DNA of 64,000 nt from an uncultured Acidobacteriota bacterium (GTDB taxonomy: Bacteria > Acidobacteriota > UBA6911): assembly GCA_963827655.1 (NCBI GenBank), contig CAWHCF010000001.1, positions 1 through 64,000 on the forward strand. The letters are read 5' to 3'. The position numbers and the translations under genes are program-made. Under the pieces are notes generated by a model. The model did no database searches and was not told where the DNA came from. It worked only from the letters and a program-made list of their open reading frames with translations. The stretch's first letter is position 1. Every line of letters begins with the position of its first letter. Below are positions 4,235 through 58,582 of the stretch, piece after piece.

Positions 4235-4280
4235 CTTCGCGTCTTGGCGGTCGAGTCACTCTCACCGCCAAGACGCGAAG
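4235..4280. repeat. 17-bp inverted repeat hairpin of the dispersed repeat family; may also act as a terminator
   Basis: CTTCGCGTCTTGGCGGT (4235-4251) and ACCGCCAAGACGCGAAG (4264-4280) are perfect reverse complements. Confidence 0.9.
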
Positions 4281-4293
4281 CCGCCTCAAAACT

Positions 4294-4346
4294 TCACACC
4301 TCCAGTCCCACCGATCGCATCAGCTCCAGCGCATTGCTCTTGCGTA
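4294..4346 (-). repeat. orphan duplicate of the last 53 bp of the mutS-like gene
   Basis: Matches 4990-5042 with 2 mismatches; encodes RKSNALELMRSVGLEV-stop. Confidence 0.95.
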
Positions 4347-4417
4347 TGTCGGCCCTCAAGCCCGAAGACGTCGCGATAATCCGTGGAGTTCGAAAACCTT
4401 GAGATCCCCAGTTATTT

Positions 4418-4427
4418 TGTATATACA
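4418..4427. promoter_or_regulatory. palindromic operator candidate for BrnTA autoregulation
   Basis: TGTATATACA palindrome 6 nt before the brnT ATG. Confidence 0.45.
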
Positions 4428-4433
4428 TAATCG

Positions 4434-4720
4434 ATGTTCGATTGGGATCCCCGAAAGGCGAGAGCGAATCAGATCAAACACGGGGTTCCATTTGAAGAAG
4501 CGGCCACGGCCTTTCTTGACCCTGATGGATTGGATGGCGAAGATCTGGAGCATTCAGCGAGCGAGCGTCGCCGGTTGCGCCTGGCTAAAAGCAGTTTGGG
4601 AGAGTACTGGTTATCGCTTATACCCAAAGGAGACGTGACAATGAAGAAATCACACGGATTATCAGCGCGAGGCGAGCGAACCGGAAAGAAAGGAAGGCCT
4701 ACGAGGTCAAAGAAGATTGA
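4434..4720 (+). CDS. brnT: BrnT-family toxin (1-nt frameshift at the G-run ~4598-4600)
   Basis: FDWDPRKARANQIKHGVPFEEA; the shifted frame continues RVLVIAYTQR...TRIISARRANRKERKAYEVKED-stop (TGA 4718-4720). Confidence 0.85.
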
Positions 4721-4934
4721 CTTTTCCGACATTCCGGAGCTTTCGGAAAACCAACTTTCTCGGATGCGCCGAATAGGAAGGCCAACGCTCGGGGATGAAC
4801 CAAGAAGGCTCATCGCAATCCGGGTGGACGCGAAGGTATTGGAGTGGTTGCGAAAAACAGCTGAGGAAATGGGCGTTCCTTACCAGTCGCTCGTGAACCA
4901 GATTTTGGCCGAGGAAATGAGAAAAGCAAGCTAG
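4641..4934 (+). CDS. brnA: BrnA-family antitoxin
   Basis: MKKSH...IDFSDIPELS...IAIRVDAKVLEWLR...PYQSLVNQIL; AGGAG RBS upstream; overlaps the toxin end. Confidence 0.85.
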   Translation: MKKSHGLSARGERTGKKGRPTRSKKIDFSDIPELSENQLSRMRRIGRPTLGDEPRRLIAIRVDAKVLEWLRKTAEEMGVPYQSLVNQILAEEMRKAS

Positions 4935-4989
4935 CTGGTCACTTCCTCGGTTGCGGCAGGTCATCGTACCGCCAAGACGCGAAACCGTC

Positions 4990-6762
4990 TCACACCTCTA
5001 ATCCCACCGATCGCATCAGCTCCAGCGCATTGCTCTTGCGTACGATCCCGGGACGCATCACGTAGTCGAATACGATCTTTCCATCTTCGATGTGGTCCTG
5101 GAAATGGACGTTCGCGGCGCGTGGCCCCAGAGCCTCGGCAATTTCCGCCAGGGCCAGGTCGTGCGTCGTGAAAAGCCCCACCGCGCCGCGATCCACGAGG
5201 CCCCGAACGACGGCTTCGGCTCCAATGCGGCGGTCATGTGAATTGGTGCCGTGAAGCAGCTCGTCAAGCAGGAAGAGCAGGGGAAATGCCCCCTTCGTCA
5301 TGTCCACCAGCTGGCGCAGGCGAGTAATTTCGGCGTAAAACCTGGAACTTCCGGCCTGCAGGGAATCCACGATCCGGATGGAGGCGCCGACCGAAAGAGG
5401 CGAGAGCCGAAGCCCGGCCGCGCGCACGGGCGCTCCCGCGAAGGCGAGCACGGCATTCGTGCCCACCGTCCGGAGCAGGGTGCTCTTACCGGACATGTTG
5501 GAACCACTGACCAGAAGCACTCGCAGTTCGCCGCCCAGCCGGACGTCGTTGCGCACGCACAGGTCTACGGGAAGCAGAGGATGGCCCAGCCCCTCACCCT
5601 CGAAGCAAATTCCCTGCTCCACAAGCTCAGGAAAGGGATCGGCCGGGTGCTCGTATCCATATCCTGACAGGGCGCAGAGAGCCTCGAATTCCCCCACGGC
5701 CGCAAGCCACCGTCCCACGGCCGGCCCGGAAATCCTGCGCCAGTTCTCGATCGCAATTGCGAACTGGGTAGACCAGAGGAGCAGAAAGGCAATGGGCGCA
5801 AATAACTGGTTGCGCTGGGCGTCAAGCAGATCTACCAGACGCCGGAGCCGTGCGATTTGACGCGACGGGGGCGAGCCCGCCGTGTCAAGCTCCGCGCGAA
5901 GACTGAGCAGCCTTGGACTGGCAAAAGGCTCGCGCTCGAGCCGCGCCAGAACCTGAGAGAGGAGCGCCAGGTCGCGTCCAGGCCGCTCCACGGCGCTGAC
6001 CACTTGCATAGTCGGGATCCGCAAGCGCAGCCAGAACGCCGCTTCGAGAAGAAGCGTTATCTGGAACCAGACGGAAGTGAATCCCAGAACGAGCCACAGA
6101 AAAAGAGCGAGCACGGTGAGGAAAGCGAGCGGAGTTGCGACGATGCGGGTCCAGCCCGGGAATACAACCGCGGGCGCCGTGCCCCAGGCGGCAAGCGCGT
6201 CCGGCTCGAGTCCGGAGCGCAAGTCGTCTCCGAGCAGCGCAAGCTCCTCGCGCAGGTCGATCCTGGGAGTCAGTTCGGCGACGGCGCTCTGACGGGCGCG
6301 AGCCTCCGCCGCGCCGGCCGGCAATCGCAGCCAGCGCGCGAGCGCGTCTTCACCGGCCCGCGTCCGCGCCGTGCAGATCAGCTCGAACAGCGACCCATGG
6401 CCGAAAAGATCCAGGTCCCGGGCGTAAGGGTGTTGATCATCGATGTAGCATTCGCCCTTTTCTCCGGTTCCCGCCCACCGGTTCTCGAGCCTGGCAATCC
6501 CTCGATCGTAAAAAGTAGCTGCGCGATCGAGACGGCGGCGCGCCTGGAGCACGCGCTCGTGAATGACAACCAGAACGAAAAAAACTATCGCCGGCAGCGC
6601 CAGCCACCAGGGCGAGAGCGCGGCGCGCACAAAGGAAAGCCAGGCCAGCGTCCCAGCCGCAACGAAGAGAGCTAGTCGCCAGTTACCGATCGTCTTGTGA
6701 ATGCGATCGAGTCGGGCCGAGGCTGAACGTCGCGCCTCGAGACGGCGGGCATACTCGTGGAT
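4990..6762 (-). CDS. membrane-anchored MutS-related ATPase (MutS domain V-type)
   Basis: GSNMSGKST, S-RFYAEI, LLDELLHGTNSHDR, TTHDL; the frame stays open upstream of 6630 (EYARRLEARR...WRLALFV) but has no clean start codon. Confidence 0.85.
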   Translation of the reverse strand: MHEYARRLEARRSASARLDRIHKTIGNWRLALFVAAGTLAWLSFVRAALSPWWLALPAIVFFVLVVIHERVLQARRRLDRAATFYDRGIARLENRWAGTGEKGECYIDDQHPYARDLDLFGHGSLFELICTARTRAGEDALARWLRLPAGAAEARARQSAVAELTPRIDLREELALLGDDLRSGLEPDALAAWGTAPAVVFPGWTRIVATPLAFLTVLALFLWLVLGFTSVWFQITLLLEAAFWLRLRIPTMQVVSAVERPGRDLALLSQVLARLEREPFASPRLLSLRAELDTAGSPPSRQIARLRRLVDLLDAQRNQLFAPIAFLLLWSTQFAIAIENWRRISGPAVGRWLAAVGEFEALCALSGYGYEHPADPFPELVEQGICFEGEGLGHPLLPVDLCVRNDVRLGGELRVLLVSGSNMSGKSTLLRTVGTNAVLAFAGAPVRAAGLRLSPLSVGASIRIVDSLQAGSSRFYAEITRLRQLVDMTKGAFPLLFLLDELLHGTNSHDRRIGAEAVVRGLVDRGAVGLFTTHDLALAEIAEALGPRAANVHFQDHIEDGKIVFDYVMRPGIVRKSNALELMRSVGLEV

Positions 6763-6764
6763 GG

Positions 6765-6856
6765 GAAATTCGGGGACAGGCTCCTAATTGCGTTGTTAAA
6801 CACCAGTCTTTTGGTCGCTCCCTAACCGCGCAATTAGGAGCCTGTCCCCGAATTTC
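6765..6856. repeat. 92-bp MITE/REP-like element with perfect 28-bp inverted arms
   Basis: GAAATTCGGGGACAGGCTCCTAATTGCG (6765-6792) / CGCAATTAGGAGCCTGTCCCCGAATTTC (6829-6856). Confidence 0.9.
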
Positions 6857-8110
6857 TATCCCTGGACGTCGTAGCAGGCGAGCACACCCTGGTTGCGGAT
6901 GTAAAGCTTGCCCTCGCACACAACCGGGTGCGCCCAGCTGGGCCGACCTTGATCCTCGATCGTGAAGCGGCCCTTCTCCTTGTACCCCTCGGGCGTGGCT
7001 TCCGCGAGTCCCACGACGTTGTTCTCACTGAACAAGTAGAGGTGTCCGTCGGCAAACGTGAGCGACCCCTTGCCCACGCTCCGATCTTTCCACATTGCTT
7101 TGCCGGTCTCGAATTCCATGCAGGTGAGGATGGCGTTGGAAAAGCCGTAGAGGTGGCCGCCAACCAGCACAACCCCGCCGTGATGATTTTGCATTTCCTT
7201 GCTGAAATAGATCTCCTGGGCCTTGACCTCGCCTCCTTCGGTCTTCAATCCGAGGAGCGCGCAACCCGTCCCATAGGCGCTGGTGTAAAAGACCTTGTTC
7301 TGATGAAAAATCGGCGTCGTAATATTGGCCGTGCGGTTGGCGACCGAGGGATAGCTCCACATCAGCTTGCCATCGGAGGCGCGGACTCCCACCCCGGCCA
7401 GAGAGGTTAACCCGATGATGGTTCGGACCCCGCCCACGTCAACCGCGATGCACGATGAATATCCCGCCGGATCACCCAAATCGCCGCTGGTCCAGATCGT
7501 CTTGCCGGTCATCTTGTCCAGCGCTACGATCCCGGCGCGCTCGCCCGGGCCCACCTTCTCCGCCCGGTGTCACAATCAGCCGGTTTCCGTCGATAAGCGG
7601 CGATTCGCTGATCAGCCAGCGGGGATTGCGCCCCTTGAAATCCACCAGGATGTTGCGGCTCCAGATCACGGAACCGTCTTCTGCTTTCAGACAGGCCAGG
7701 TCGCCGTTCTCCGTCAGAACATAAACGCGATTGGCTTCCAGCGTTGGCGTGCCCCGCGGTCCGCTCCCGCGATCGTGGTTCAGAGTTGGACCCAGAGCCT
7801 TAGTCCAGACGATCTTTCCGTTTGAACGGTTCAGACAGAAGACGACGCTTTCATTATTCAGCGTCCCCTGCACGAAGATCCGGTCCCCTTTGATGGAGAC
7901 CGTACCGTAGCCCGCTCCCAGACCGGAGATCGACCAGAGTCTGGGCGGCCCGTCCGGGGGCCACTGCTTGAGCAACCCCGTCTCTTTCGAGAGATTGGTT
8001 CGATCGGGTCCCTGCCACTGCGGCCAGTCGGGTTCGGCCGCCAAAGCACCCAGAACGCAGCACAACGCAAGAATCGAGAGCATGAAACCCAATGAACGCG
8101 GATGAGTCAT
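6856..8110 (-). CDS. PQQ-binding-like beta-propeller protein (BamB-like), frameshift ~7555
   Basis: Signal peptide, [15 protein letters not shown] and GKLMW repeats, [14 protein letters not shown]. Confidence 0.85.
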
Positions 8111-11027
8111 GAGAGGCTCCTTGGCGTCTTCGTGTCTTCGCGGTTAGAATGGCGAACACTCAATAACTGGCGCAGCACATAGGGAAGGATACCGCCATGC
8201 CGGTAGTAGTCGGCCTCGATCGGCGTATCAATCCGTATCTTCAACGGTACTTCTTCAATTTTGCCGTTCTGGCGGCGAACGACCAGCGTGATATCCTGGC
8301 GCGGCTTCACTCTATGCTCCAGGCCGGCGATATCGAACGTCTCGGTGCCGTCCAGTCGCAGGGTCTGCGCGCTTGTCCCCTCGTAGAACTGACAAGGTAT
8401 GACGCCCATCCCGACCAGATTGCTCCGGTGAATGCGCTCGAAGCTCCGGGCCACGACCGCCCCGACACCCAGGAGACGCGTGCCTTTGGCTGCCCAATCG
8501 CGCGAACTTCCGGTCCCGTACTCCTGGCCGGCGAAGACCACCAGAGGGACCCCCTCTTGCTGGTACCGCATCGCGGCGTCATACAGGCTCATGCGTTCGC
8601 CATCAGGCTGGTGCACCGTCACGCCGCCCTCGACCCCGGGAACCATTAGATTCTTGATCCGGACGTTGGCAAATGTCCCTCGCACCATTACTTGATGGTT
8701 GCCGCGGCGTGCCCCGTAGCTGTTGAATTCGTGTGCCGGAACACCCTGGTTCAAGGAGGTACACTCCTGCCGGAGAAGTCGGTTTAATCGCGCCGGCCGG
8801 GCTGATGTGATCGGTCGTGACCGAATCACCGAAAATTGCCAGCGCGCGGGCCTTCTGTATGCTTCCGGTCGGACCGGGCTCCATGCTGAACCCTTCGAAG
8901 TACGGCGGCTCCTGGATGTACGTGGAATTCGGATCCCAGTCGTACACGGAACCAATGCTGGTCGGAATCTGGTTCCACACGGGATTCTGCTCGGCAAAGG
9001 TTCCGTACAGCCTTCGATAAGTCTCGGGATCGAAGGCCGACTTCAGCAACTCGCGCACTTCCCCAAGGTCTGGCCAGATATCCTTCAAGTACACGCCGGC
9101 GCCGTCTTCCCCGCGGCCGATCGGCTCTCGGGCCATATCGATATCGATCCGGCCCGCGAGCGCGAAGGCTACCACCAGCGGCGGGCTCATCAAGAAGTTC
9201 GCCTTCACCGACTGATGCACCCGAGCCTCAAAGTTCCGATTGCCGCTCAGGACGCTGGCCGCGATCAGGTCGTGCCTGGTGACCACCTCCTCGATCACCG
9301 GATCGAGAGGGCCGGAGTTGCCGATGCAGGTCGTGCAGCCGTAGCCGACCAGGTTGAATCCGATCTGATTGAGATAAGTCTGAAGCCCGGTCCTTTCAAG
9401 ATAATCGGTGACCACGCGCGAGCCGGGGGCCAGCGAGGCTTTGACGGTCGGGGGAAGCGACAGGCCTTTCTCTACCGCCTTCTTGGCCAGCAGTCCCGCT
9501 GCCAGCATTACACTCGGGTTCGAGGTGTTGGTGCACGAAGTGATCGCCGCAATCACGACGTCGCCGTGGCCGAGATCGACATTCGCCCTGGGAAACTCGT
9601 CGTCTCGAATCTCCTGAATCAAGTCGGCTGTAGGGCGGTTATTTATCATTTCGGTCTCGGTCCAGATACTGGTGTTCACGGGCGCTCACGCCCCCCGCTC
9701 CCGCCGGCACGGCTTCGGCTTCCTGTCTCCCTCCCCCGGCAAGCGGGCGGGGCGCCGCACTCCTGCGAACCCCGATAGTGGCGGGATAGGTCTTGTCAAT
9801 ATCGTCCCTGGTCTTGCTATAGCCGCTTTCACTGACCGGCTTCTGGAGTATTTCGCGGAAGCGCTCCTTGAGAACCGAAAGCGCTATGCGATCCTGCGGG
9901 CGTTTCGGACCGGACACGCTCGGTTCGACTTCATGCAGGTCAAGCTCCACCAGAGTGCTGTACGCGCATTCATTCTTGCGCGGGATGCCAAACATTCCTT
10001 GAGCCGTGAAATAAGCGCGCACCAGTTCGACCTGCTCCTCGGTTCGCCCGGTCGCTTTGAGATAAGCGCAGGTTTCCTGGTCGACCGGGAAGAGCCCCAT
10101 GGTCGCGCCATACTCCGGTGACATGTTCGCGATGGTGGCTCGATCGGGCACCGACAGGGTGGCGGCTCCCTCGCCGTGAAACTCGACAAATTTACCCACC
10201 ACATTTGCCTGGCGCAGCATCTGGGTTACATGCAGAACAAGATCCGTGGCGCTGACTCCGTCGCGAAGCTTTCCGCTCATATGGACACCCACGACGTCGG
10301 GCGTGAGAAAATAGACCGGTTGTCCGAGCATGCCCGCCTCGGCTTCAATCCCGCCGACGCCCCACCCCACGATCCCGAGACCATTGATCATGGTCGTGTG
10401 CGAGTCGGTGCCGACCAGCGTGTCCGGATAACAAAGCCCATCTTTCTCGAGCACCCCTTTTGCCAGATATTCCAGATTCACCTGGTGGCAAATACCGATT
10501 CCGGGCGGCACGACACTGAAATGGTTGAAGGCCTGCATTCCCCATTTCAGGAATTGATAGCGCGCGAGATTGCGTTTGAACTCCATCTCCATGTTCAGCT
10601 TGAACGCGTCGCTTGTGCTTGAAAAATCGACCTGGACCGAATGGTCGATCACCAGGTCCACAGGCACCAGCGGCTCAATCATCTTCGGATCGCGGCCCAG
10701 CCGGCCCACCGCGGAACGCATCGCGGCGAGATCGACGAGCAATGGCACCCCGGTGAAGTCCTGCAGGAGGATGCGCGCCACCACGAACGGAATCTCATGA
10801 GTTCTTTCGGCATTCGCGCTCCATCCGGCCAGAGTCCGAACGTCGTCCTCGGTTATTCGCTTGCCGTCGTAATTGCGCAGAACCGATTCCAGGACTATGC
10901 GGATGCTGACGGGGAGCCTGGAAATCGATCCTACCCCTTCTTTCTCCAGTTGAGGCAGCGAATGAAACTGCCGGGGGCCTTTCGAGGTTTCGAAGCTCTG
11001 GAGAGAGTGGAACAGATTATGTGTCAT
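8107..11027 (-). CDS. acnA: aconitate hydratase AcnA (frameshifts ~9680 and ~8750-8830)
   Basis: [64 protein letters not shown]. Confidence 0.95.
8120..8145. repeat. dispersed repeat family copy inside the acnA 3' end
   Basis: CTTGGCGTCTTCGTGTCTTCGCGGTT. Confidence 0.8.
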
Positions 11028-11083
11028 AAGAGTCTTTCACGATTGGATGTTACCCAACTACTTGTTTCTTCGGCAAGGTCTAG

Positions 11084-11134: not shown

Positions 11135-11135
11135 A

Positions 11136-14493: not shown

Positions 14494-14597
14494 CCACCAC
14501 TAAGACGCGAAGTTAGCAATTTCTTCTTTTTCCACAAGATTCTTGGTGCTTCTTCGCGTCTTTGCGTCTTAGAGGTATTTGTTCCTCAGCGCTAACC
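14494..14597. repeat. dispersed repeat family copy; left flank of the DUF433/DUF5615 cassette
   Basis: CCACCACTAAGACGCGAAG...GATTCTTGGTGCTTCTTCGCGTCTTTGCGTCTTAGAGGTATTTGTTCCTCAGCGCTAACC. Confidence 0.85.
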
Positions 14598-14635
14598 CTT
14601 GGCCAGACGAAATGCTTGTAGTATCTTTCAATCCT

Positions 14636-14869
14636 ATGAACTTCATCGACATCCCATCAAGTCTCCGGGACCACTTCGAGCAGACTCCGGAAGTGCTCGG
14701 AGGAAAGCTTCGTATTCACGGCTGTCGAGTTTCCGTCGAACAGGTTCTCGAACTGCTGGAAGCCGGTGTAGCGCCTTCCGACATTGTTCGATCCTTCCCC
14801 TCCCTCGATCTTCCTGCCGTGAGTGCCGTGGAGCGTCTAGCAGCTCATTGCGCCCTCACGATGCTATAA
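14636..14869 (+). CDS. DUF433-family antitoxin (VapB45-like)
   Basis: TPEVLGGKLRIHGCRVSVEQVLELLEAG...FPSL. Confidence 0.85.
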   Translation: MNFIDIPSSLRDHFEQTPEVLGGKLRIHGCRVSVEQVLELLEAGVAPSDIVRSFPSLDLPAVSAVERLAAHCALTML

Positions 14870-14877
14870 GAATGTGA

Positions 14878-15190
14878 ATGCGTTATTCTGTTGGACGAGA
14901 ACGTACCCGTTGACGTTCTACCAGTGTTACGCGAAGCGGGTCATGAAGCTGAGTCCGTCAATTTTATTGGTTGGAAGGGCCTTGAGAACGGAGTTCTGAT
15001 CACTCAGGCCCAACAGAAGTTTGACTTGCTGCTGACTCGCGATCAGGACTTCGATGAAGAATATCTGACTCGATGCGTTTATGTTCGTTTCGGGATCATT
15101 TTACTAGCAATTTCCCAACAGCCAGGACCTAGTTACGCAGCCGTTTTCACAAGACTCTGGCCCGGCCGAGGCGAGCTCGCTTGTCGGTAG
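14878..15190 (+). CDS. DUF5615 / PIN-like toxin (VapC45-like); frameshift near the start, end uncertain
   Basis: MR(I)LLDENVP, GWKGLENGVLI, FDLLLTRDQDF; directly after the DUF433 gene. Confidence 0.8.
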
Positions 15191-15284
15191 AGTCACCCGG
15201 CTGGGTGGCTGAACTAATATTTCGCATCGGGAGAGCATCTAGTTCTGACGGGCTGCAGAATGCGAACTTATTTCTGCGCGAACC

Positions 15285-15366
15285 CTAAGACGCGAAGTTA
15301 GCAATTTCTTCTTTTTTTTTCGACAAGATTCTTAGTTCTTCGTGTCTCTTCGTGCCTTAGTGGTAC
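15285..15366. repeat. dispersed repeat family copy; right flank of the TA cassette
   Basis: CTAAGACGCGAAGTTAGCAATTTCTTCTTTTT is identical to 14500-14531, followed by ACAAGATTCTT and CTTCGTGTCTCTTCGTGCCTTAGTGGTA. Confidence 0.9.
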
Positions 15367-16580
15367 GACTTAACAGGACGCCCGGCGCCCGCCTTGATCC
15401 GGCTGATATTCTCCGGACTCATAAACTCCGGGAGCGGAAACGAGCCCGTAATGGCTGAATAGAACTGGTTCGTCGCTTCCTGGTTGCCGTACAGTGCTCC
15501 AAAGAGCTCCTGCATGGGTGGGGGCGCCGGCTCCAATGTCGCCAACTGACAAGTAAAATCATACAGTGGTTTGACTCGCTGGTCGCGGCTCGCCTGATAC
15601 TCCGCCAGCGCCTCATCGAGCAACCGTCGCTCCGAGAAGCCGGCATCCAAAGCCTCCGTTAAATTTTCTGCGTCGATGAACGCGTCGCTGATCCCTTGCG
15701 CCGTGATCGGATCCTTATCGTACCCGGCGTCGCCGGCGAGCGCCCAGCCGGGGCCATAAGGCTTGCGGAAGTAATTGGCGACACCCGCCGTTCCAAACCA
15801 TTTCTCCTCACGTTTTGCGTTTTGCAGCCTGTCCGCGATGCTTGGTATGGACTCGAGCACCTTCCGGACGTTCCCTTCGATGTCCGCGCGTATCTCGTTG
15901 AATCTGCTGCTCGGCCAAACAGACGCGATGAGCGTGAGACCGTCGTGTGTCGCGAAACAACCAGCGGCCTGATAGTCGCGGACATATTGCTCGATGTCTT
16001 CGGCTCCGAACCCGCTGTAGTAACTGTAGTAGTAAATGGCGATGGGTGGAATCGTGTCGTATTCCGGAGCTGAGACAGCTTTCGCCACAAAAGAATGCAC
16101 TCCGTCGGCGCCGATGACGATTCTAGCCCGTTCCTCCACACTCGCACCATTCCGGCTGCATCCCTTGATCCCGACCACACGATCCCCGGCCCAGACCAGG
16201 TCCCCGACAGTGAACTCTTCCCGCAGTTCGGCTCCACACTCGACAGCGGCATCGACCAGTAGCTTGTCCAGCACCGTACGGCGTGGGCAAAACCCACCGC
16301 GCCCGTTGTTCGTGTCGGTCACGCCGCCCATGAGGGCGAACGGGCCAACATCAAAGGTCATATTCAGCGCGATTGGCGGGCAGCCGGTCGCGGCGAGTCT
16401 ATCAAACAATCCCCAGCGGTCCATGATTTCGGCGCCGTGTGGCCAGATGATGTGCGTGGAAATAGTGTCGCTCGGAAAGCTGGCCTTATCCACCAGCAAC
16501 ACTCGGTAGCCCCTCCGGGCAAGGAGCATCGCTGTCGGAGAGCCGGCGCAGCGTGCGCCGACGATGATCGCGTCGTACAT
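15357..16580 (-). CDS. NAD(P)/FAD-dependent oxidoreductase (geranylgeranyl reductase/flavin monooxygenase-like)
   Basis: YDAIIVGARCAGS, VIGADG, GWALAGDAGYDKDPITAQGISDA. Confidence 0.9.
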   Translation of the reverse strand: MYDAIIVGARCAGSPTAMLLARRGYRVLLVDKASFPSDTISTHIIWPHGAEIMDRWGLFDRLAATGCPPIALNMTFDVGPFALMGGVTDTNNGRGGFCPRRTVLDKLLVDAAVECGAELREEFTVGDLVWAGDRVVGIKGCSRNGASVEERARIVIGADGVHSFVAKAVSAPEYDTIPPIAIYYYSYYSGFGAEDIEQYVRDYQAAGCFATHDGLTLIASVWPSSRFNEIRADIEGNVRKVLESIPSIADRLQNAKREEKWFGTAGVANYFRKPYGPGWALAGDAGYDKDPITAQGISDAFIDAENLTEALDAGFSERRLLDEALAEYQASRDQRVKPLYDFTCQLATLEPAPPPMQELFGALYGNQEATNQFYSAITGSFPLPEFMSPENISRIKAGAGRPVKSYH

Positions 16581-16609
16581 AGTCTTCCCCCCTCAGCTAA
16601 GATCGTTCG

Positions 16610-16692
16610 CATTTCTTTGTGTCTTTGAGTCTCAGTGGTTGGTTTTGTCGTGCCGCCCTAGCCACGAAGACCCAAAGAAAGACCAAGAATTT
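16610..16692. repeat. dispersed repeat family copy (palindromic)
   Basis: TTTCTTTGTGTCTTTGAGTCTCAGTGGTT...CCACGAAGACCCAAAGAAAGACCAAGAAT. Confidence 0.8.
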
Positions 16693-25020: not shown

Positions 25021-25482
25021 TCATGAAGAATCCTTAGAGCTGCCGGAAACTGGTTTCGGTGGCAGAGAAAAGTAATGCCGATAGCGATCGGGCAGTCGTG
25101 ACGGCTTATGGTTGAGATCAACCACGATGTGAGCGGTCTCCCCGGTGGCCAGGAGTTTGGCGCCGACCTTCTCGCGGACTTCATAAGCAAAGCGGATGAT
25201 CTTGTCGGTAGCTGAAACCACAGCCGTTCGGATGACCAGGTCATCATCGAACCGCGCCGGCGCCTTGTAACGGCAGCAGGCTTCGGCGACCATCAGCATG
25301 CACCCGTCCTGGGACTCCATGTCGCGGTAATTGAAGCCTTGTTCGCGGCACCATGCGACTCGTCCGACTTCGAACCAGACCAGGTAGTTCGCGTAATAGA
25401 CGACTCCCATCCGGTCGGTTTCGGCATAACGGACGTTGACCACCGTATCGACGAACTTCGCGTCCTCAGGCATGTCTCGCAT
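25021..25482 (-). CDS. acyl-CoA thioesterase (YbgC/FadM, 4HBT family)
   Basis: VRYAETDRMGVVYYANYLVWFEVGR, YKAPARFDD. Confidence 0.92.
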   Translation of the reverse strand: MRDMPEDAKFVDTVVNVRYAETDRMGVVYYANYLVWFEVGRVAWCREQGFNYRDMESQDGCMLMVAEACCRYKAPARFDDDLVIRTAVVSATDKIIRFAYEVREKVGAKLLATGETAHIVVDLNHKPSRLPDRYRHYFSLPPKPVSGSSKDSS

Positions 25483-25516
25483 AGCAGAACTTTAGCGGTA
25501 ATCAAGGCAAGCAAGC

Positions 25517-25804
25517 TTACTTGAATTCCCGCGCCAGCGCAGCCACCTCCTCGTAGATTCTGCTACGGTGCCCAACGGCCAGAACTCGAATGATCCGGCG
25601 AGGTCGATCAATCGAGTAGACGAGACGGTACCGTTTTACTCGGTATTTCCAGAAGCCTTCGAGTGGAGCCAAGAGAGGAGTGCCTTTATAGGGGTTTTCG
25701 CCAAGGACCTTGAGGGCAGACTTGATGCTACGTTTAAGATCTGGAGGGAAATGACGAATGATCTGCCCCACATGGGGTGGGATATCCGCCTGATAGGCGA
25801 TCAT
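25517..25804 (-). CDS. RelE/ParE-family toxin
   Basis: NPYKGTPL...LEGFWKYRVKRYRLVYSID...VLAVGHRSRIY. Confidence 0.9.
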   Translation of the reverse strand: MIAYQADIPPHVGQIIRHFPPDLKRSIKSALKVLGENPYKGTPLLAPLEGFWKYRVKRYRLVYSIDRPRRIIRVLAVGHRSRIYEEVAALAREFK

Positions 25805-26097
25805 CGACGACGAGTCTTCTTCACAGGAAGAAGTCGTTCGCCAAACACATCCTCAAGAGACAACCCCCGTTTTCCTTTCGCGTAGAATGCCTCGCTCCGG
25901 CGAATCTGCCGCATTAGGAGAGGATCACTAAGAACATCAATGGTTTCCTTCAGGCGTTCATACTCGGCGTGACTGAGGAGTATTGCCGCCGGCCTCCCAT
26001 TGCGGGTTACTACGACCTCCTCTTCGCGCTCCTCTACCCCGGTCACCAGTTCGGTTAGCCGAGTTTTAACCTCTGAAATTGGCAGCGTGATAGCCAT
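25801..26097 (-). CDS. Phd/YefM-family antitoxin
   Basis: ISEVKTRLTELV...VVVTRNGRPAAILLS..EYERLKETIDVLSDP; ATGA overlap with the toxin. Confidence 0.92.
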   Translation of the reverse strand: MAITLPISEVKTRLTELVTGVEEREEEVVVTRNGRPAAILLSHAEYERLKETIDVLSDPLLMRQIRRSEAFYAKGKRGLSLEDVFGERLLPVKKTRRR

Positions 26098-26194: not shown

Positions 26195-26261
26195 TTCCTG
26201 GTGTTTCTTCGTGTCTTCGTGTCTTGGTGGTATTTGTTTCGCAGCGAACCACGACACGAAG
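26195..26261. repeat. dispersed repeat family copy
   Basis: CTGGTGTTTCTTCGTGTCTTCGTGTCTTGGTGGTATTTGTTTCGCAGCGAACCACGACACGAAG. Confidence 0.9.
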
Positions 26262-26321
26262 GCCGAAGTAATTGTCGCCTTCCGGCCCATGAGCTAAAAT
26301 CGCCCTCGCGGAGGACCGGAA

Positions 26322-29928: not shown

Positions 29929-31026
29929 GTGGAAACGCTGCGACCCCGGCAGATCGCCGTTATGGCAGGGACGCTCGCCTGCTTCCTCGGTCTGGCGGGT
30001 TGCGGGCGCGTGGATCAGGCGGATCAAATGGACAAACCCTCAAGCCTCAGGTCGTGACCGAGCGGGTCCGAAATGACTCCGATGACCCCGCCATCTGGTT
30101 GCATCCCGACGATCCATCAAAATCTCTGATAATCGGAACCGACAAACACGAAGACGGAGCCCTCTACGTTTTCGGGTTGGATGGACGCATTATTACCGAA
30201 CAAGACCGTCTCGGGATTGAAGCGCCCCAACAATGTTGACGTGGAGTATGGACTCATGCTCAAAGGCGCGGCAACGGACATCGCGGTCGCGACGGAAAGG
30301 TACACAGGCAAGATCAGGGCCTACAGCCTTCCCGGCATGCTCGAAATCGACAATGGCGGTATTCCGGTGTTCGAAGGAGAGGCCCAGCGAGATCCAATGG
30401 GAATCGCACTCTACAAGCGACCGGCCGATGCAGCTATTTTCGCAATCGTCGGTCGAAAGAGCGGTCCCACAAGAGGAGGGTACCTCTGGCAATACCGGTT
30501 GGAAGATGACGGCTCGGGCAAAGTCAAGGCGACCAAGGTACGCGAATTCGGCACCTGGAGCGGTCGCAAAGAAATCGAAGCGATCGCAGTCGACGATCCG
30601 TTGGGGTATGTCTACTATTCGGATGAAGGATTCGGTATAAGAAAATACTCTGCCGATCCGGACGCTCCGGATGCCAACGTCGAGCTTGCTGTATTCGGGA
30701 CCACCGGCTTTGCGGAAGATCAAGAGGGCATTTGCGTCTATCAAGTGACCGATACTACTGGATATATACTCGTCTCCGACCAGTCGGCGAATCGATTTCA
30801 CATTTTCACTCGCGAAGGGGAGCCGGGGCGGCCGCACAGCCATCGACTGTTGAAGACAATCCGTGTGGCAGCCAACCAGTGCGATGGCTCGGAGGTTGCG
30901 AGCGTTCCTTTGACAGAGAAATTCCCAGCCGGCCTTCTCGTCGCGATGTCGGATGATGGAACCTTTCATTTTTATTCCTGGAAAGACATAGCTGACGGGA
31001 CGCTCGTCGTCTCGAGAAAAGAGTAG
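29929..31026 (+). CDS. beta-propeller (3-)phytase, probable lipoprotein; frameshifts ~30035 and ~30190
   Basis: DSDDPAIWLHP, IIGTDK, NNVDV, KEIEAIAVDD, DQEGI; an alternate-frame N-terminus ends in a lipobox LAGC. Confidence 0.85.
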
Positions 31027-31060
31027 TGTTTTCTTCGTGTCTTCGCGTCTTAGCGGTATT
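31027..31060. repeat. dispersed repeat copy, left arm around the cupin gene
   Basis: TGTTTTCTTCGTGTCTTCGCGTCTTAGCGGTATT. Confidence 0.85.
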
Positions 31061-31069
31061 GGTTCCGCC

Positions 31070-31352
31070 ATGGTATCGGTAAATCGCAAAAGGGTTGAGT
31101 CAGGATTGGACGGCGCGGGGATTCTCCTGCGATCTTTGGATAGATCCACCGGGGCGAGAGTGGATCGATTTTGTGCACGACACCGACGAGCTGGTCATGC
31201 TGCTCGAGGGCGAAGAAGAATTCGAGATGAACGGAAAGAAGTATCGACTGTCTCCGGGCGAAGAGCTTCTGATTCCCGCCGGAACTTACCATACTGCGCG
31301 CAACGTCGGAGCCGTCACCTCGAGATGGCTCTACGGATATAAGCGTAGTTAG
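31070..31352 (+). CDS. small cupin-domain protein (possible frameshift near the start)
   Basis: DPPGREWIDFVHDTDELVMLLEG...PGEELLIPAGTYHTARN. Confidence 0.85.
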
Positions 31353-31405
31353 CGCTGCGAACTAATACCACTAGGACCCAAAGACACGAAGAAACACCAA
31401 GAATC
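31348..31405. repeat. dispersed repeat copy, inverted right arm around the cupin gene
   Basis: GTTAGCGCTGCGAACTAATACCACTAGGACCCAAAGACACGAAGAAACACCAAGAATC. Confidence 0.9.
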
Positions 31406-51250: not shown

Positions 51251-51264
51251 CGTTTGCGGTTCCG

Positions 51265-52008: not shown

Positions 52009-52125
52009 TGCGATTACTCTACTACACGATAGCCAGGACCTTCCAGAACAAGCTGCGACATAATAGCCCGTTAAATAGTTCGGTTTTGAGCGGAAGTTGG
52101 CGCGTTCGCTGTTTCCGCAGCATTC

Positions 52126-52213
52126 AACCGCGAAGACGCGAAGACCCGACGGCCGTGAGGCTGCAACCCAAAAGAAAAAGCACCGCAGAGACGCAAAGGC
52201 CGCAGAGGCACGC
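52126..52213 (+). repeat. composite repeat; left boundary of the surface-protein island
   Basis: AACCGCGAAGACGCGAAG...GCCGTGAGGC...CAAAAGAAAAAGCACCGCAGAGACGC; direct match to 58102-58191. Confidence 0.85.
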
Positions 52214-53371: not shown

Positions 53372-53639
53372 AAAAGTTCTACTTCTCCCTTGCCTGCTTA
53401 TAACAAATCTGTCTGTGGCATGGTCGACGACTTTCTTGGTCCGTCCTGGAGGCATGGGTTCGATTTGCACACAGTACGTAGCGGATGTCGGTCAGACACT
53501 TATGCCGGCCGGGACGCAGTACGGCACCCTTCCTGGAATGACGCAGCCCGCGCCGTTCCCTCGGTATTACCTGACTAACAATCCGGACCGCGGCTGGCTT
53601 CCGTGGCCGGCGTTCTGTATGGGGGCGATACTTCCTTGA
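53361..53639 (+). CDS. small secreted protein made of the N- and C-terminal caps of the downstream beta-helix protein
   Basis: Signal peptide + TTFLVRPGGMGSICTQY joined to DVGQT..AGTQYGTLPGMT..PDRGWLPWP; overlaps both neighbours. Confidence 0.65.
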   Translation: MSIKKVLLLPCLLITNLSVAWSTTFLVRPGGMGSICTQYVADVGQTLMPAGTQYGTLPGMTQPAPFPRYYLTNNPDRGWLPWPAFCMGAILP

Positions 53640-55560
53640 ATAAACGCACGTTTGACAACTTGATTCTCACCCTCGGTTTGATCCTGATCGTTCTGGTGGG
53701 CGAGTCGCGCGCAGCTACTTACTTCGTCCGAAGTGGAGGAACCGGCATAAATTGCACGCAGTATCAGACGGTCGGCACGGCGAGTGGAACAATCCAAGCG
53801 GCTATAAATTGCACATCAACCGGAGGCGACGTCGTAGATATAGGCCCGGGCGTGTTCCACGAACGCGTAACCTTCCCGGCCAGCGGCAGCGTCGGCAACC
53901 CGATCATCGTGCGTGGCGCGCTGGATCCGGCAGGAGGTTTACTGACAACTGTCGACGGCACAAGCGCTATAACCGGCACATGGCAGCTGGCGAACGATAC
54001 GCAAAACGTCGACGCCTGCGGTGGATCTTTTTGCCGGCACGGCTACACTTTCCGGCTCGGGGACATACCGTATCAACACACCTTCCAGTGAACCTTGGCA
54101 TATCCAGGAGGGAACCGGAAAAAAGCTACTACGCATTTCCAACCAATGGATGAACGGCACCAGGGACTACAACAACTATTGCCGCTCAGGATTTGAGTTT
54201 TTGAACAAGCCGTCCAATTTTATCGATGACGTTGATTGGGGCGTTAGCTATTGGGACGGGATAGAGGCACTTTGGGGTTACAGTTCAGCAACTGGTTACA
54301 CTTATGTTCGGTATAGAGACGGGACAAACCCAGGCACGAAGAACCTGCGATGGGCACCGGGTGGGGAGTATGATTTTGAAAGTAGTTCCGTAGTCGAAAT
54401 CAACGCAAGGTCGAATATCACGATCTCGAACCTGATCATACAGGGTGCGCTGAACGGTGTTCTGATACGGGGTGGCGGCAACCAAGGGGAGGGAACTACC
54501 GCCGACAACAACACCGTGCAAGGCTGCACAATTCGCAATTTCGAATATGGTGTGCTGGTCTACGGACGAACAGACAATACCAAAGTTCTTTCTTGCGACC
54601 TGCGTTCCGGCCTGCTCGGCATGTCAGGTTTTCAACCGGTTGCTTGGCAACCGGTTTCGACGATCTCGACGGATCCCGTCTATCCATATAATCGGAGTGT
54701 GAGCTGGCACATGTATGCCATGATGAAGTTCATGAACGATAAGTCTTACAGTATCAGGCATCCGGGCGTTGCGATCCACCCCGGCATTATGAACAGGGTC
54801 TTTCCTGTTGAGCCGACAAACATTGAAATTGCCTACAATGAGATGACCGAGCTCAACTACGGCGTGGACATGCTCGGAGGAGATGGGATCGACATTCACC
54901 ACAACACGGCGCACAACAACGTGGACATCGGCTTTCAGCGGTCTCCGAGCTCCACCGGCGGCACGCAATATAAAGATCCACGACAACGATGTGTGGGAGC
55001 AGAAATATACTCTCTTCAGGTGGCATTCTGCCAATCAATCTGCCGGCGACAACTACATTTACCGGAATCGAGTTTCTGCTCTTGACAGAGTCGGTGTGCA
55101 CTGTTTCCTCCCCAGCCAGATTGGTTCCGGACCTCAGGTTTCAGAGCTGAACATATGGTTTTATCACAATTCTTTCTCGGGAGGTGCTACCGTCTGGGAG
55201 CTTGACAAAATCATAAGCATGCCTGGGTTTCGCGCTGTTAATAACGTGATTTCTCACTCCGGCAACACAGCCATTGATTCCGGTTGGCTCACGATGGGTG
55301 TATTCGATTACAACATCATGAGCGCGAACCTTGGAGTCGGCGGTCCTTGGTATGGCGGCAATAATATAACAGGGATGCCGGCCATCTGGTCAACGAGTCA
55401 GATCGAGAAAAACTTTGTCCTGCCGGCCAGTCATGCTGCGCGAAATTCCGGAGTGGATGTGGGACAGGTATTCACCGCAGCTGGCACACAATATCCTGCC
55501 CTACCGGGCATGACACCAACGCCGCAACCTGATCGTGGCTGGCTAAAGTGGCCCCCATAG
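53636..55560 (+). CDS. secreted right-handed parallel beta-helix protein (pectin-lyase-like); frameshifts ~54030-54090 and ~54960
   Basis: ATYFVRSGG, TIQAAIN, IGPGVFHERV, SGSVGNPIIVRG, NITISNLII, NNTVQGCTIRN, IDIHHN, YIYRN, FYHNSF. Confidence 0.8.
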
Positions 55561-55833
55561 AATTAGCGGTGTAGGTACGGCTTTTTGAAGGGAAATGATG
55601 AATACGCAACTCGCGTTTTCTTTGCATCTTTGCATGTTCGAGGTTAATGCTGTTAATGCGACTTTACGATTAAGTCAGGGAGATTGCCGGCTGAGCGAGG
55701 AAGCCCTGCGTTCCTGAACTCTCGCCGGCCGTGAAGTGGGAACGGTTTCATCGGCGATATCCGTCAAATTCCGATTGACGGGCAGTTGGCCATTTTAACC
55801 ATAATTCGCAGCCCAGGGTACTTGGGAGTGTGT

Positions 55834-58239
55834 ATGACGGAATTAAGGAAATATACGGGGAAAGCTTCCGGGTGGTTTGTCTATCTATTTCTGGCCGTAG
55901 GTTCTCACAACATCATCGCCGGGTGGTTGCATGCACAGCCGGTGTCTTTCGTCACCGCCAGGAGGTTCAGTGCCGGCTCGGGTCCCGTATCAGTTGGCGT
56001 GGGCGACTTCAATCAGGATGGAAATCGGGACCTGGCAGTGGCCAACAGCGGTTCCAACAATGTCTCGGTGCTTCTGGGCAATGGCAATGGAACGTTCCAG
56101 CCGGCGGTCAATTTCCCGGTCGGCGGATCCCCGAATTCCGTCGTCGTGAGTTACTTCAATGGCGACTCGATTCAAGATCTCGCCGTGGCGAGCTCCGTGA
56201 GTTCGACGTCTACGAGTGTTTCAGTGCTCCTGGGCAATGGCAATGGAACGTTTCGGCCGGCGATGAGCTTTCCTGCCGGCGGATTAGGCCTTCCCATGAC
56301 CTACGGTGATTTCAATAATGACACCTTTCAGGATGTGGTCATCGGCTCGATCTCACCGTTCATGAATGGCGTAGTGCTCCTCGGAAACGGAAACGGCACA
56401 CTTCGGCCACCCCTGAACGCTCCCATTGGGGGCAGTTCTCTGGTCGCGGGCTACTTCAATAACGATGGAATTCTGGACATTGCAGACGTCGCCTCAATAT
56501 CTAACAGGATCCGGGTGCACGTCGGTAACGGAGACGGAACGTTCCGGTCACCCCTGTTTTCTCCTGGCGTCCAAGCTCCTCGAACACTAGAGTTGGGCCA
56601 CTTTAATCGCGATGTCATCGCGGATCTGGTCGTGGCCGACGTTGACTCGGGCGATGTGGGCATACTTCTGGGCAATGGAGATGGAACATTTCGACCTGGC
56701 GGATTTTCTGGCCTTCTCTTGCCTGGTCCCTTCGCTGTAGACGACTTCAATGGTGATACCATCGATGATCTGGCCCACAGTTCTGGCGGGGGGGTTGGTG
56801 TAGCGCTAGGCCGAGGAGACGGATCGTTCCGTCGGCCATTCATAAGCACTGCTGCCTCTGGTTCTTTCTTCGCAGTGGGTGAGTTCAATAGCGATGGGCA
56901 CAAGGATCTCGTGACGACCGACGGCGACGGAGTGACGATCTTGCTCGGTTGGGGCGATGGGACGTTCCGGGGGTCTTGGAACTATGACCTCGGGACGGAA
57001 TTGAGACCTCTTAGCGCTTTTTTAAGGCCGATGGTCACGCGCGGTGATTTCAATCGCGATGGCATTCAAGATCTCGCGATTGCGATCCCTGGTATTCCCG
57101 GTAGAATCTCGGTATTTCTGGGCAACGGAGATGGATCACTTCGCTGGTTATACGACTTTGGGGCTGGCGGCGCCGACTCTCTCGAAGTGGGTGACTTCAA
57201 CGGCGATGGGATTCAGGATCTTGTGATCTCCGACGCGCTATTCCTGGGTAATGGGAATGGCACATTCCAGCCAGCAATAAACTTCCCCGGTGTCGATGCT
57301 CCTTCTGGCATCGCAGTGGGCTTCCTGAATGGAGACGGGTTTCTGGACCTTGCAGTGGTGAGCCGTTCTGCCAGCAGTATTACGGTGCTGCTCGGTAATG
57401 GGAATGGGACATTCCGGCCGCCATTGTCGTTTAATACTGGGGCTCCTGTGCGTTTTCCTGAAAAAAGATCTGTCGCCCTGGGCGATCTTAACCGCGATGG
57501 CAGTCTAGACCTGGTGGTCACCAACTCCTCTGCCGGCAGTATCACGGTGCTGGTCGGGAATGGAGATGGCACGTTCCGGGCGCCATTACTCTTTGATACC
57601 GGCAGAGAACCTGTTGCCGTTGCCGTTGGGGATTTCAATAGGGATCAATTCCTGGATGTCGCCGTGGCCAGTCCCGCTATTGGCATCCTGGTGCTCCTGG
57701 GCAATGGGAATGGAACCTTACGCATCCCGTCAAACCTTGGTAGGAGTGCTGACGCCATCACACGGGGCGATTTCAATAGCGATGGGATTGACGATCTGGC
57801 GGTGACCGGCTCTTCCTTACCCGGCACCCTGGTGCTCCTCGGCAATGGGGATGGAACGTTCCAGCCGGCGGTGATTTTTGAGACGGCTAACGGCTCTTCA
57901 CTCCTCGTTGGCGATTTCAGCGGGGACGGCCGTCCAGACCTTGCGATCGTCGGCAATCTGGACGCTTTCTTCTTCCGTATCAATACGCTCTCGGTGCTGA
58001 TCAATAACACTCCTGATCCGCGCCTGACACTGGAGCCCCTGGAATCTGACCGCGCACAAGCTCGCGTTCCGCTGTCTTGGTCAATTTTGTTCCGGAGAAT
58101 TAACCGCGAAGACGCGAAGCGCAGCCGTGAGGCCGCGAATCAAAAGAAAAAAAGCACCGCAGAGACGCCGAGGGCGCAGAGAAACGCAGAGTCTTTCACT
58201 CTTTCTCTTGGCGAGCTTTTCTGTCATGAACTGCCCTAA
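55834..58239 (+). CDS. FG-GAP/VCBS repeat beta-propeller protein; true stop probably ~58016
   Basis: ~13 repeats of GDFNxDGxxDLAV...VLLGNGNGTF; after INNTP the ORF reads into repeat DNA. Confidence 0.9.
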   Translation: MTELRKYTGKASGWFVYLFLAVGSHNIIAGWLHAQPVSFVTARRFSAGSGPVSVGVGDFNQDGNRDLAVANSGSNNVSVLLGNGNGTFQPAVNFPVGGSPNSVVVSYFNGDSIQDLAVASSVSSTSTSVSVLLGNGNGTFRPAMSFPAGGLGLPMTYGDFNNDTFQDVVIGSISPFMNGVVLLGNGNGTLRPPLNAPIGGSSLVAGYFNNDGILDIADVASISNRIRVHVGNGDGTFRSPLFSPGVQAPRTLELGHFNRDVIADLVVADVDSGDVGILLGNGDGTFRPGGFSGLLLPGPFAVDDFNGDTIDDLAHSSGGGVGVALGRGDGSFRRPFISTAASGSFFAVGEFNSDGHKDLVTTDGDGVTILLGWGDGTFRGSWNYDLGTELRPLSAFLRPMVTRGDFNRDGIQDLAIAIPGIPGRISVFLGNGDGSLRWLYDFGAGGADSLEVGDFNGDGIQDLVISDALFLGNGNGTFQPAINFPGVDAPSGIAVGFLNGDGFLDLAVVSRSASSITVLLGNGNGTFRPPLSFNTGAPVRFPEKRSVALGDLNRDGSLDLVVTNSSAGSITVLVGNGDGTFRAPLLFDTGREPVAVAVGDFNRDQFLDVAVASPAIGILVLLGNGNGTLRIPSNLGRSADAITRGDFNSDGIDDLAVTGSSLPGTLVLLGNGDGTFQPAVIFETANGSSLLVGDFSGDGRPDLAIVGNLDAFFFRINTLSVLINNTPDPRLTLEPLESDRAQARVPLSWSILFRRINREDAKRSREAANQKKKSTAETPRAQRNAESFTLSLGELFCHELP
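58102..58191 (+). repeat. composite repeat; right boundary of the island
   Basis: AACCGCGAAGACGCGAAG...GCCGTGAGGC...CAAAAGAAAAAAAGCACCGCAGAGACGC...CGCAGAG. Confidence 0.85.
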
Positions 58240-58417
58240 AAAACATTGCGTCGCATAGGAGCTCGACCAAAGGACCGAGACAACGCCAATCCTTCGCGGT
58301 CGGCGAAAGAGAATCGACCAACGCTGGCGCCGTGGAACGAATCGGCGCCGCTAAATAAAGACGCTGCCTAGAGCCGCTCCGAGTAATCGCTCTTTCCGAA
58401 GTAGAGTCCCAAGCCAT

Positions 58418-58537
58418 TCCCTTGCCGTAGGCTTGTTGAGCGGCGACGGCCGTCCAGACATCGCGGTCGCTGGTTCTCGCCAGTTTGTGGGTAATCGTTT
58501 CCACAAGCTCTCGGTGCTGGTCAACAACACTCCATAG
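58418..58537 (+). pseudogene. orphan 3' end of a paralogous FG-GAP gene (39 codons + stop)
   Basis: SLAVGLLSGDGRPDIAVAGSRQFVGNRFHKLSVLVNNTP-stop aligns without gaps to 57898-58017. Confidence 0.85.
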
Positions 58538-58582
58538 CGTTTCTTCGTGTCTCTTCTGTTTTGTTTTTGCATCTTGCATGAT

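Follow-up and report, generated by a model that had tools for sequence, protein, structure and literature searches.

Can small gene cassettes be captured beside the 3′-ends of genes at sites marked by a short genomic repeat, with no integrase close by? The question is raised by the first 64 kb (positions 1 to 64,000, 'the window' below) of contig C1 (CAWHCF010000001.1) in the genome assembly GCA_963827655.1 of an uncultured Acidobacteriota bacterium, where a toxin-antitoxin (TA) gene pair, BrnTA, stands between two copies of the end of a mutS-like gene and next to members of a palindromic repeat family. An earlier interpretation made from the letters of the window (the sequence-only reading) had seen four cargo segments bracketed by this family and proposed a repeat-guided, integron-like mode of capture. 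We observed that the repeats are abundant and lie mostly between genes, that two TA cassettes of the window are enclosed by long direct duplications and that one of them exists in filled and empty alleles. These observations are explained, with a probability of roughly 60%, by an abundant family similar to repetitive extragenic palindromes (REPs) or miniature inverted-repeat transposable elements (MITEs) together with a few TA insertions that resemble minimal mobile elements and sit beside fragile palindromes; no dedicated capture system would be involved.

The genome (G000) amounts to 8.18 Mb in 53 contigs, with 58% G+C. Genes were called by our own procedure based on open reading frames (ORFs), a crude one, which gave 6098 genes covering 80% of the genome. 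Strains were compared by means of Logan contigs of metagenome runs (the runs are X-numbered) and the metagenome contigs L011 and L022; parts of the window DNA were present in 20 runs of 18 studies, from soil, rhizosphere and sediment. Pfam upheld the names BrnT_toxin and BrnA_antitoxin, DUF433, DUF5615/PIN_10, Cupin_2, MutS_V and FG-GAP. With the repeat unit called 'arm', the features around BrnTA are the following.

929-4220: outer membrane protein (OMP) barrel gene, stop at 4220
4227-4280: hairpin doublet (arm, 12-nt loop, arm) between the OMP barrel stop (4220) and the orphan gene end
4255-4346: direct-repeat copy 1, made of part of the loop, one arm, a spacer and the orphan mutS-like end
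4347-4959, + strand: BrnT/BrnA cassette (Pfam BrnT_toxin, 5.6e-11; BrnA_antitoxin, 3e-9)
4960-5042: direct-repeat copy 2, made of an arm and the true mutS-like 3′-end
4990-6630, − strand: mutS-like gene (Pfam MutS_V, MutS_III), whose end is the duplicated one

The two direct-repeat copies are identical in 78 of 92 aligned columns. Within them, the final 53 nt of the mutS-like gene are doubled, being present once as an orphan (4294-4346) and once inside the gene (4990-5042; 96% alike), and these are the only two copies in the genome; thus, of the two orphan gene ends described earlier, the mutS-like one is genuine. The hairpin (fold of 4221-4285, −40 kcal/mol, z −8.1) is present also in L011, a contig with an empty site. 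BrnT is frameshifted in this assembly, with matches in two frames and a 1-nt gap relative to L022 (alignment block from 4537).

Contig L022 is colinear with the window from 5287 to 3738; it carries, in this order, the mutS-like gene, an arm, BrnA, BrnT, the orphan end, the hairpin and the OMP end. Compared with those of the window, its mutS-like part is 98.3% identical, its cassette 92.9%, its orphan 86.8% and its OMP gene 75.4%. Contig L011, with 97.6% nucleotide identity to the mutS-like gene over 1734 nt, has the order mutS-like stop, one hairpin, OMP stop, and the BrnTA cassette is absent. Both flanks of L022 map to L011 at 95%, each of them covering L011 1954-2023; therefore, what the filled form has over the empty one is the cassette and one more copy of the target (∼70 nt long according to this mapping, 92 nt when the window is aligned with itself). 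Thus, BrnTA is a real insertion that differs among strains: the site is filled in the window and in L022, and empty in L011, which has a single copy of the duplicated stretch. The alignment of strains, which had been named as a check, showed presence and absence of the cassette with precise boundaries at this site. In run X3, a contig of the same depth as those flanking it connects 4338 with 5095, which lends this weak support, as only 27 letters stand on the shorter side of the joint. The cassette DNA was found in none of the 50 other genomes of the family, neither alone nor within a larger element. The closest species-level genomes belong to other genera, with an identity of merely 66-71% in the mutS-like gene, and the empty site could not be read in relatives, as the OMP and mutS-like genes were on separate contigs where both were matched (G003, G009).

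Comparison of the five copies of the target tells something of the age of the insertion. Between the window and L022, identity is 91% for the gene-side copies and likewise 91% for the orphan copies; a gene-side copy set against an orphan copy gives 84-86%. Therefore, the duplication predates the split of the two filled strains. Furthermore, the OMP gene of the window is only 75% identical to the OMP genes of L011 and L022, while the adjoining mutS-like gene is 98% identical; therefore, a sharp recombination boundary is situated at the hairpin. The loop of the L011 hairpin (2025-2035) aligns better to the reverse complement of the filled-allele loops (window 4252-4263), with scores of 6, 3 and 2 versus 3, −1 and 0. 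For strings of 9-12 nt, this is only a hint that the loop flipped between the empty and filled alleles.

The second cassette of the window lies ∼10 kb away.

14496-14577: direct-repeat copy 1, a whole arm-spacer-arm element, after the ABC transporter stop (14488)
14578-15281, + strand: DUF433 plus DUF5615/PIN-like pair, putative TA cassette
14579-14869: DUF433 gene (Pfam, 5e-13)
14891-15190: DUF5615 gene (DUF5615, 6.3e-9; PIN_10, 0.0032)
15282-15365: direct-repeat copy 2, covering the stop and the last two codons of the convergent FAD-binding gene
15357-16580, − strand: FAD-binding monooxygenase-like gene (Pfam FAD_binding_3), between two repeat elements
16599-16691: hairpin doublet upstream of the FAD-binding gene

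The copies at 14496-14577 and 15282-15365 are identical in 72 of 88 columns, and each is a whole arm-spacer-arm element; the first folds at −26 kcal/mol (z −3.6), and the spacer within the element is unique in the genome to these two copies. A scan of the genome for local direct duplications gave a third TA cassette of this kind, C7:88432-89244, in which two ∼70-nt arm-spacer-arm copies enclose the genes for a Phd-like antitoxin and a RelE/ParE-like toxin. The lengths between copies are 613 nt for BrnTA, 704 nt for DUF433 and 672 nt for the C7 cassette. A DUF433 gene directly adjoins the C7 cassette, the two making up a small TA cluster (C7:87704-89244). Among the joints listed from the Logan contigs, none leads from the end of a cassette to its start, an outcome that in contigs counts neither for nor against circles. 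Some joints go back along the window (e.g. 14576 to 14495, with 21 letters between); taken as candidates for circles, they were rejected, being other hairpin copies of the family.

What are the repeats themselves? The exact 11-nt core AAGACRCGAAG has 899 copies on both strands of the 8.18 Mb. Alignment of all copies gave an arm of ∼40 nt composed of tandem 8-nt units of the type AAGACRCG; its A-rich strand reads roughly ACAAATACCACTAAGACACGAAGACACGAAGAAACACCAAGAATC. When core and flanking context were used together we counted 1440 arms in the genome: 219 inverted L-R arm pairs <60 nt apart (the hairpin doublets), 26 oppositely arranged pairs and ∼920 solitary arms. With one mismatch allowed, there were 1569 repeat loci, 1081 of them intergenic by our gene calls. 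No strong bias was seen in the orientation of arms with respect to neighbouring genes; the median distance from arm to gene boundary was 24-145 nt across classes and 24-71 nt where the boundary was a gene 3′-end. Doublets and elements fold stably (−25 to −40 kcal/mol, RNA fold). Rfam at gathering thresholds had no match in the whole window.

Among related genomes, the double-unit pattern has a patchy distribution: it was found in 7 of 41, namely 63 times in this genome, 113 and 6 times in members of two further genera of its family, 23 times in a genome from a different family and once each in three more, while the reversed control pattern gave one match in total. Arms downstream of the mutS-like gene were seen also at orthologous metagenome loci (68% protein identity). 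The exact 31-nt repeat pattern occurred in eight GTDB contigs titled as Pseudomonadota, Betaproteobacteria, Alcaligenaceae or 'uncultured bacterium' metagenome-assembled genomes. We characterize the repeats as a lineage-restricted, REP/MITE-like palindromic intergenic family that expanded in some lineages; a literature search (Acidobacteria, repetitive extragenic palindromes), which left supplements outside, did not find it. A ∼300-nt element (58102-58409; C10:190860-191125) starts with an arm followed by units CGCAGAGA, its head having four genomic copies; it looks like a variant subfamily of the repeat.

As to enzymes, the earlier statement that no integrase or transposase is present locally agrees with our scan: matches to Phage_integrase (PF00589) and to the Y1 transposase (PF01797), the two families to which the scan was limited (other transposases were not scanned for), were absent from the window. 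Elsewhere in the genome there are 20 matches to PF00589, none on contig C1, and one to PF01797. The latter, at C35:41745-42074, belongs to the sole Y1 (IS200-like) gene (C35:41712-42383, an intact 234-aa frame), which is similar to the REP-associated tyrosine transposases (RAYTs); it has no flanking arms, the closest arm being ∼2.1 kb off. A RAYT was therefore rejected as mobiliser of the family, this lone candidate gene being without flanking arms.

With so many arms, what does it mean for a gene to have repeats on both sides? Arms are present in 947 of the 6045 gaps between genes (15.7%), and 174 of 5992 genes have an arm-bearing gap on each side, when 147 would be expected if gaps were independent. 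Therefore, bracketing alone is nearly uninformative; a random gene has a chance of a few per cent of having a repeat on each side. The window is rich in arms (20 arms, 93rd percentile of 64-kb windows, the mean being 11.8). With strictly called gaps, two of its predicted genes are flanked on both sides; if any stretch between adjacent repeat loci counts as bracketed, so are ordinary genes: the mutS-like and PQQ-like genes, an aconitase-family gene, the FAD-binding gene, and the cytochrome c and esterase genes.

Direct tests of repeat guidance were made at the genome scale. Among 86 unique rows of local direct duplications that touch an intergenic stretch, arms were present at both copies in four, so that the genome-wide tally of duplications beside repeats, named earlier as a check, spoke against guidance; of 84 local pairs containing arms, six were mutual best matches in the genome, most being ordinary family members. 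TA loci were surveyed by the families DUF433, ParE, Phd, PIN and BrnT (79 loci), and 74 of them were not bracketed. By these genome-wide tests, guidance of insertions by the repeats is not supported; it is absent or at most weak.

Long duplications, moreover, also surround cassettes that have no arms. In C45:110058-112049, a 45-nt direct duplication without arms encloses a ∼1.9-kb segment; by eye from its translation, not by Pfam, we take it to encode an ECF sigma factor, an anti-sigma-like protein and a zinc-ribbon membrane protein. In genome G033, from another family, two TA loci have flanking direct duplications of ∼134 nt without arms (36 locus rows were examined, L040 and L070 being one locus). 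In L040 (G033:C212:9872-13012), the neighbouring gene has one of the copies as its 3′-end, while the second copy is an orphan; in L034 (G033:C96:5754-8981), the duplication holds a perfect 26-nt palindrome. Thus, whether or not the palindrome is present, small cassettes inserted in these bacteria recurrently leave behind long duplications of the target and orphaned ends of genes. A longer duplication, of 270 nt, has its copies 11 kb apart (C36:14225-14488 and 25463-25734); it includes a gene 3′-end and abuts a BrnT homologue (C36:14420-14659), and may represent a larger island with duplicated ends.

How, then, could the cassettes have come in? We propose that small accessory cassettes, mostly TA pairs, would insert in short gaps downstream of genes where palindromes happen to sit. 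The cassette would arrive on DNA that also holds the local target (the palindrome, the last bases of the gene or both), and would be joined by homologous recombination, by illegitimate recombination that homology facilitates or by a switch of template at the hairpin. The outcome would be a direct duplication of 70-90 nt and, at the mutS-like gene, an orphan 3′-end as well. Later spread or loss in the population could proceed, as for a minimal mobile element, through recombination, either within the genes on both sides or from one duplicated copy to the other; neither a dedicated enzyme nor a dedicated site would be required. Of the earlier idea that cassettes enter at gene 3′-ends and duplicate them, this retains the entry and the duplication, which the BrnTA alleles bear out, and drops the repeats as guiding sites.

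Several observations weigh against this explanation. TA loci are bracketed and flanked by duplications more often than controls: an arm is present within 500 nt on both sides in 5 of 79 TA loci versus 44 of 2984 small predicted genes, and a flanking duplication with a score of at least 60 in 3 of 73 testable TA loci versus 7 of 391 control small genes, an excess to be read with the caveat that two of the TA cases prompted the idea and that one control match is the C7 TA locus. The palindrome takes part in each of the three TA cassettes of this genome that have flanking duplications (BrnTA, DUF433 and C7); for two of these, what was duplicated coincides exactly with the complete palindromic element, as a neat result of a structure-directed cut would. 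Copies of the mutS-like target, five in all, do not separate clearly into donor-derived and recipient-derived ones: at three sites around the stop L011 agrees with both orphan copies and differs from both gene-side copies, with overall distances to L011 being similar (76-82%). The joining mechanism is a proposal. Finally, two further strain differences within 15 kb end at palindromes. Contigs of the soil runs X1 and X2 have a joint 15248->16695 with 119 other letters between; these strains keep the DUF5615 end, are without the FAD-binding gene, and the joint reaches the stop of the next gene. The second difference is at a palindrome distinct from the family:

6765-6856: palindrome with 34-nt arms, 94% complementary, and a 24-nt loop, between the mutS-like and PQQ-like genes

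Contigs from three runs (X20, X2, X3) have 68 other letters in its place. Thus, palindromes are frequent ends of strain differences in this species.

One could speculate from such observations that TA cassettes insert at folded palindromes by a structure-directed process, either staggered cleavage at the hairpin base or template switching in replication, that would copy the whole 70-90-nt palindrome, and sometimes a gene end, to both sides; we consider this improbable. Also unlikely, in our estimate, is that an enzyme acting in trans (a distant recombinase, an IS110-like or a RAYT-like one) reads the folded palindrome, inserts and excises cassettes and duplicates the whole element. Such site-directed capture would account for three TA cassettes with palindrome-containing duplications of 70-92 nt, two of these being the whole arm-spacer-arm element, for the precise boundaries of the empty and filled alleles, for the FAD-binding gene that stands between two elements and is missing in runs X1 and X2, and for the weak enrichment at TA loci. 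It leaves unexplained that there are no arrays and that 74 of 79 TA loci are unbracketed; that junctions vary, being within the gene 53 nt from its stop in one case and at element edges in others; and that flanking copies derive from each other rather than from independent sites. Moreover, cassettes flanked by duplications occur without arms (C45; L040 and L034), the genome has a single Y1 transposase gene, free of flanking arms, and the window no integrase, and arm pairs at the scale of a gene show neither excess nor extra similarity. The integron-like, repeat-guided capture suggested by the sequence-only reading is not supported, on much the same grounds: 174 bracketed genes versus 147 expected, arms at both copies in 4 of 86 duplications, mostly unbracketed TA loci, arm-free duplications, no arrays and no linked recombinase.

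Integrative elements that target the 3′-ends of genes classically leave such an end duplicated next to the insert. This counts for another possibility, that the cassettes are relics of larger integrative elements, akin to cis-mobilizable elements (CIMEs), in which the duplications are old attL and attR sites and the TA pair is what survived deletion; the 20 Phage_integrase matches elsewhere in the genome and the age of the duplication relative to the strain split fit as well. Yet three independent trimmings to just two TA genes (613, 704 and 672 nt) are unlikely, no integrase fragments are present between the copies (Pfam on cassette ORFs), and the cassette DNA occurs, alone or in a larger element, in 0 of the 50 genomes of the family, a search in which the att-like stretch itself was not included; we hold this origin to be doubtful, too. 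An assembly artefact, i.e. repeats mis-joined in a metagenome-assembled genome, is very improbable. It could be argued from the indel differences to other strains exactly at split genes (3925, 7539/7545) and from the frameshift in BrnT. On the other hand, in the independent contig L022 the OMP end, hairpin, orphan end, BrnTA, arm and mutS-like gene follow one another as they do in the window, the right junction of BrnTA is crossed by an X2 contig (4558-5059), and the two BrnTA copies differ at 14 of 92 columns, so that no read path was collapsed or duplicated. L022 and the X2 contig therefore exclude an artefact for BrnTA, which the sequence-only reading had named as what would refute it; the exclusion applies to BrnTA, and among the contigs listed none crosses either DUF433 junction.

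With the explanation by ordinary insertion beside fragile palindromes retained, we turn to the remaining segments, starting with a TA pair and a cupin gene.

25517-26097, − strand: ParE-like toxin plus Phd/YefM antitoxin pair (Pfam)
26195-26262: hairpin doublet near this pair
31026-31065 and 31359-31397: inverted arms
31095-31352, + strand: Cupin_2 gene (Pfam), between these arms

The ParE/Phd pair has no flanking duplication (best flank alignment score 30). The cupin arms are complementary in 34 of 40 positions and abut the stops of the convergent neighbours, with no local duplication. Among arm pairs 120-1000 nt apart, a score of 45 was reached by 3 of 27 LR, 3 of 27 RL, 1 of 17 LL and 1 of 13 RR pairs; therefore, the placement of the cupin gene cannot be distinguished from chance. 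A gene in a hairpin loop, as the cupin gene might be seen, was rejected as a general pattern, L-R pairs being no more complementary than other pairings.

The last of the four segments is the island of ∼6 kb.

52113-52213: left copy of a four-copy repeat subfamily, flanking the ∼6-kb segment
53484-53609, + strand: C-terminus-like fragment of the beta-helix gene
53579-55560: beta-helix gene, split over three frames
55786-58239, + strand: FG-GAP repeat gene (Pfam FG-GAP_3, 2.1e-79), its open frame continuing into the repeat
58090-58187: right copy of the four-copy repeat subfamily, flanking the ∼6-kb segment
58417-58536, + strand: orphan FG-GAP-like 3′-end, terminated by a stop and followed by an arm, 180 nt past the FG-GAP frame

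The left and right copies are identical in 84 of 103 columns, and further copies exist at C10:190880 and C34:71655, so the flanks of the ∼6-kb segment are not a private duplication; the stretch 58102-58409 is ∼70% like C10:190860-191125. The orphan FG-GAP end (58436-58533) is only 73% like the end of its neighbour (74 of 101), so that here the claim of a duplicated gene end is weak. A gene reduced to its two termini had also been reported from the island. We found the C-terminus-like fragment (57% identity over 42 aa to 55456-55554, tblastn against the genome); no N-terminal piece was found. The ∼6-kb segment, with its decayed genes, is probably a messy old region, and it gives no evidence of mechanism. 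Thus, of the four bracketed cargo segments, BrnTA and DUF433/DUF5615 have real duplications of 82-92 nt, while the case is weak for the cupin gene with its inverted arms and for the ∼6-kb segment with its four-copy subfamily.

Single-base frame changes split several genes of the window: the OMP barrel gene (3923-3925), the PQQ-like propeller gene (7539-7545), BrnT (near 4597) and the beta-helix gene (53579-55560). Indels of 1 nt relative to contigs of other strains were seen exactly at 3925 and 7539/7545. The split genes are either assembly indel errors or real pseudogenes.

If the ordinary explanation holds, the value of these observations is modest: a repeat family absent from Rfam in an uncultured soil lineage, and a clean example, in filled and empty form, of how a TA pair comes to lie in a gap downstream of a gene, with an orphaned end as the trace. 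For annotation there is a caution, that not every orphan end or split gene here should be put down to faulty assembly; also, 'bracketed by repeats' weighs little where about one gap in six holds a repeat. Were the structure-directed process true, abundant palindromes would be integrase-free landing pads, a new route of gene gain in soil bacteria.

Among known systems, the family is closest in appearance to REPs, their hairpin-forming doublets (REPINs) and MITEs: hundreds to more than a thousand short palindromes, intergenic and near gene ends, single or in hairpin-forming inverted doublets, with a patchy distribution. It differs from REP/REPIN-RAYT systems in that a cognate RAYT flanked by the same repeats was not found, and from classic REPs in that the arms are built of tandem 8-nt units and are longer (∼40 nt). 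In the part of a review concerned with them, REPs are described as insertion sites and hot spots of local plasticity (PMC3184786), with which the strain differences that end at palindromes here agree.

The cassettes share with integron cassettes, and with clusters of attC sites lacking integron integrases (CALINs), a small size, a frequent TA content and a position beside an imperfect palindrome of ∼60-100 nt that ends up on each side. Unlike in integrons or CALINs, there are no arrays: single cassettes are ∼10 kb apart with ordinary genes between, and no integron integrase is nearby. Furthermore, the two palindromes are copies of each other, and the family is spread over ∼950 ordinary intergenic gaps. 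By eye, no GTTRRRY-type core was seen within ∼15 nt of the four cassette junctions.

A nearer parallel is the minimal mobile element concept (Saunders and Snyder 2002), as it is described in a section of PMC3787668. As in that concept, whole-gene content varies among close relatives between the same two neighbours: the window and L022 carry the cassette between their OMP and mutS-like genes and L011 does not. The window has neither an integrase nor a Y1 transposase, and exchange would proceed by recombination in the flanks. On the other hand, the 92-nt duplication and the orphan gene end are not required by the concept, and the OMP flank is just 75% identical between the window and L011 or L022.

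The adjacent small genes, BrnT/BrnA, ParE/Phd and DUF433 with DUF5615/PIN_10, are predicted from their Pfam families to be type II TA pairs. A literature search (supplements being outside it) gave nothing that describes TA cassettes flanked by duplicated palindromes. The likeness is close to ccdO157 of E. coli (Mine et al. 2009, as cited in review PMC3184786), likewise a chromosomal TA pair variably present in one intergenic gap: in the portion of that review devoted to it, this pair is present, decayed or absent in the folA-apaH gap among strains, many of which carry a REP there.

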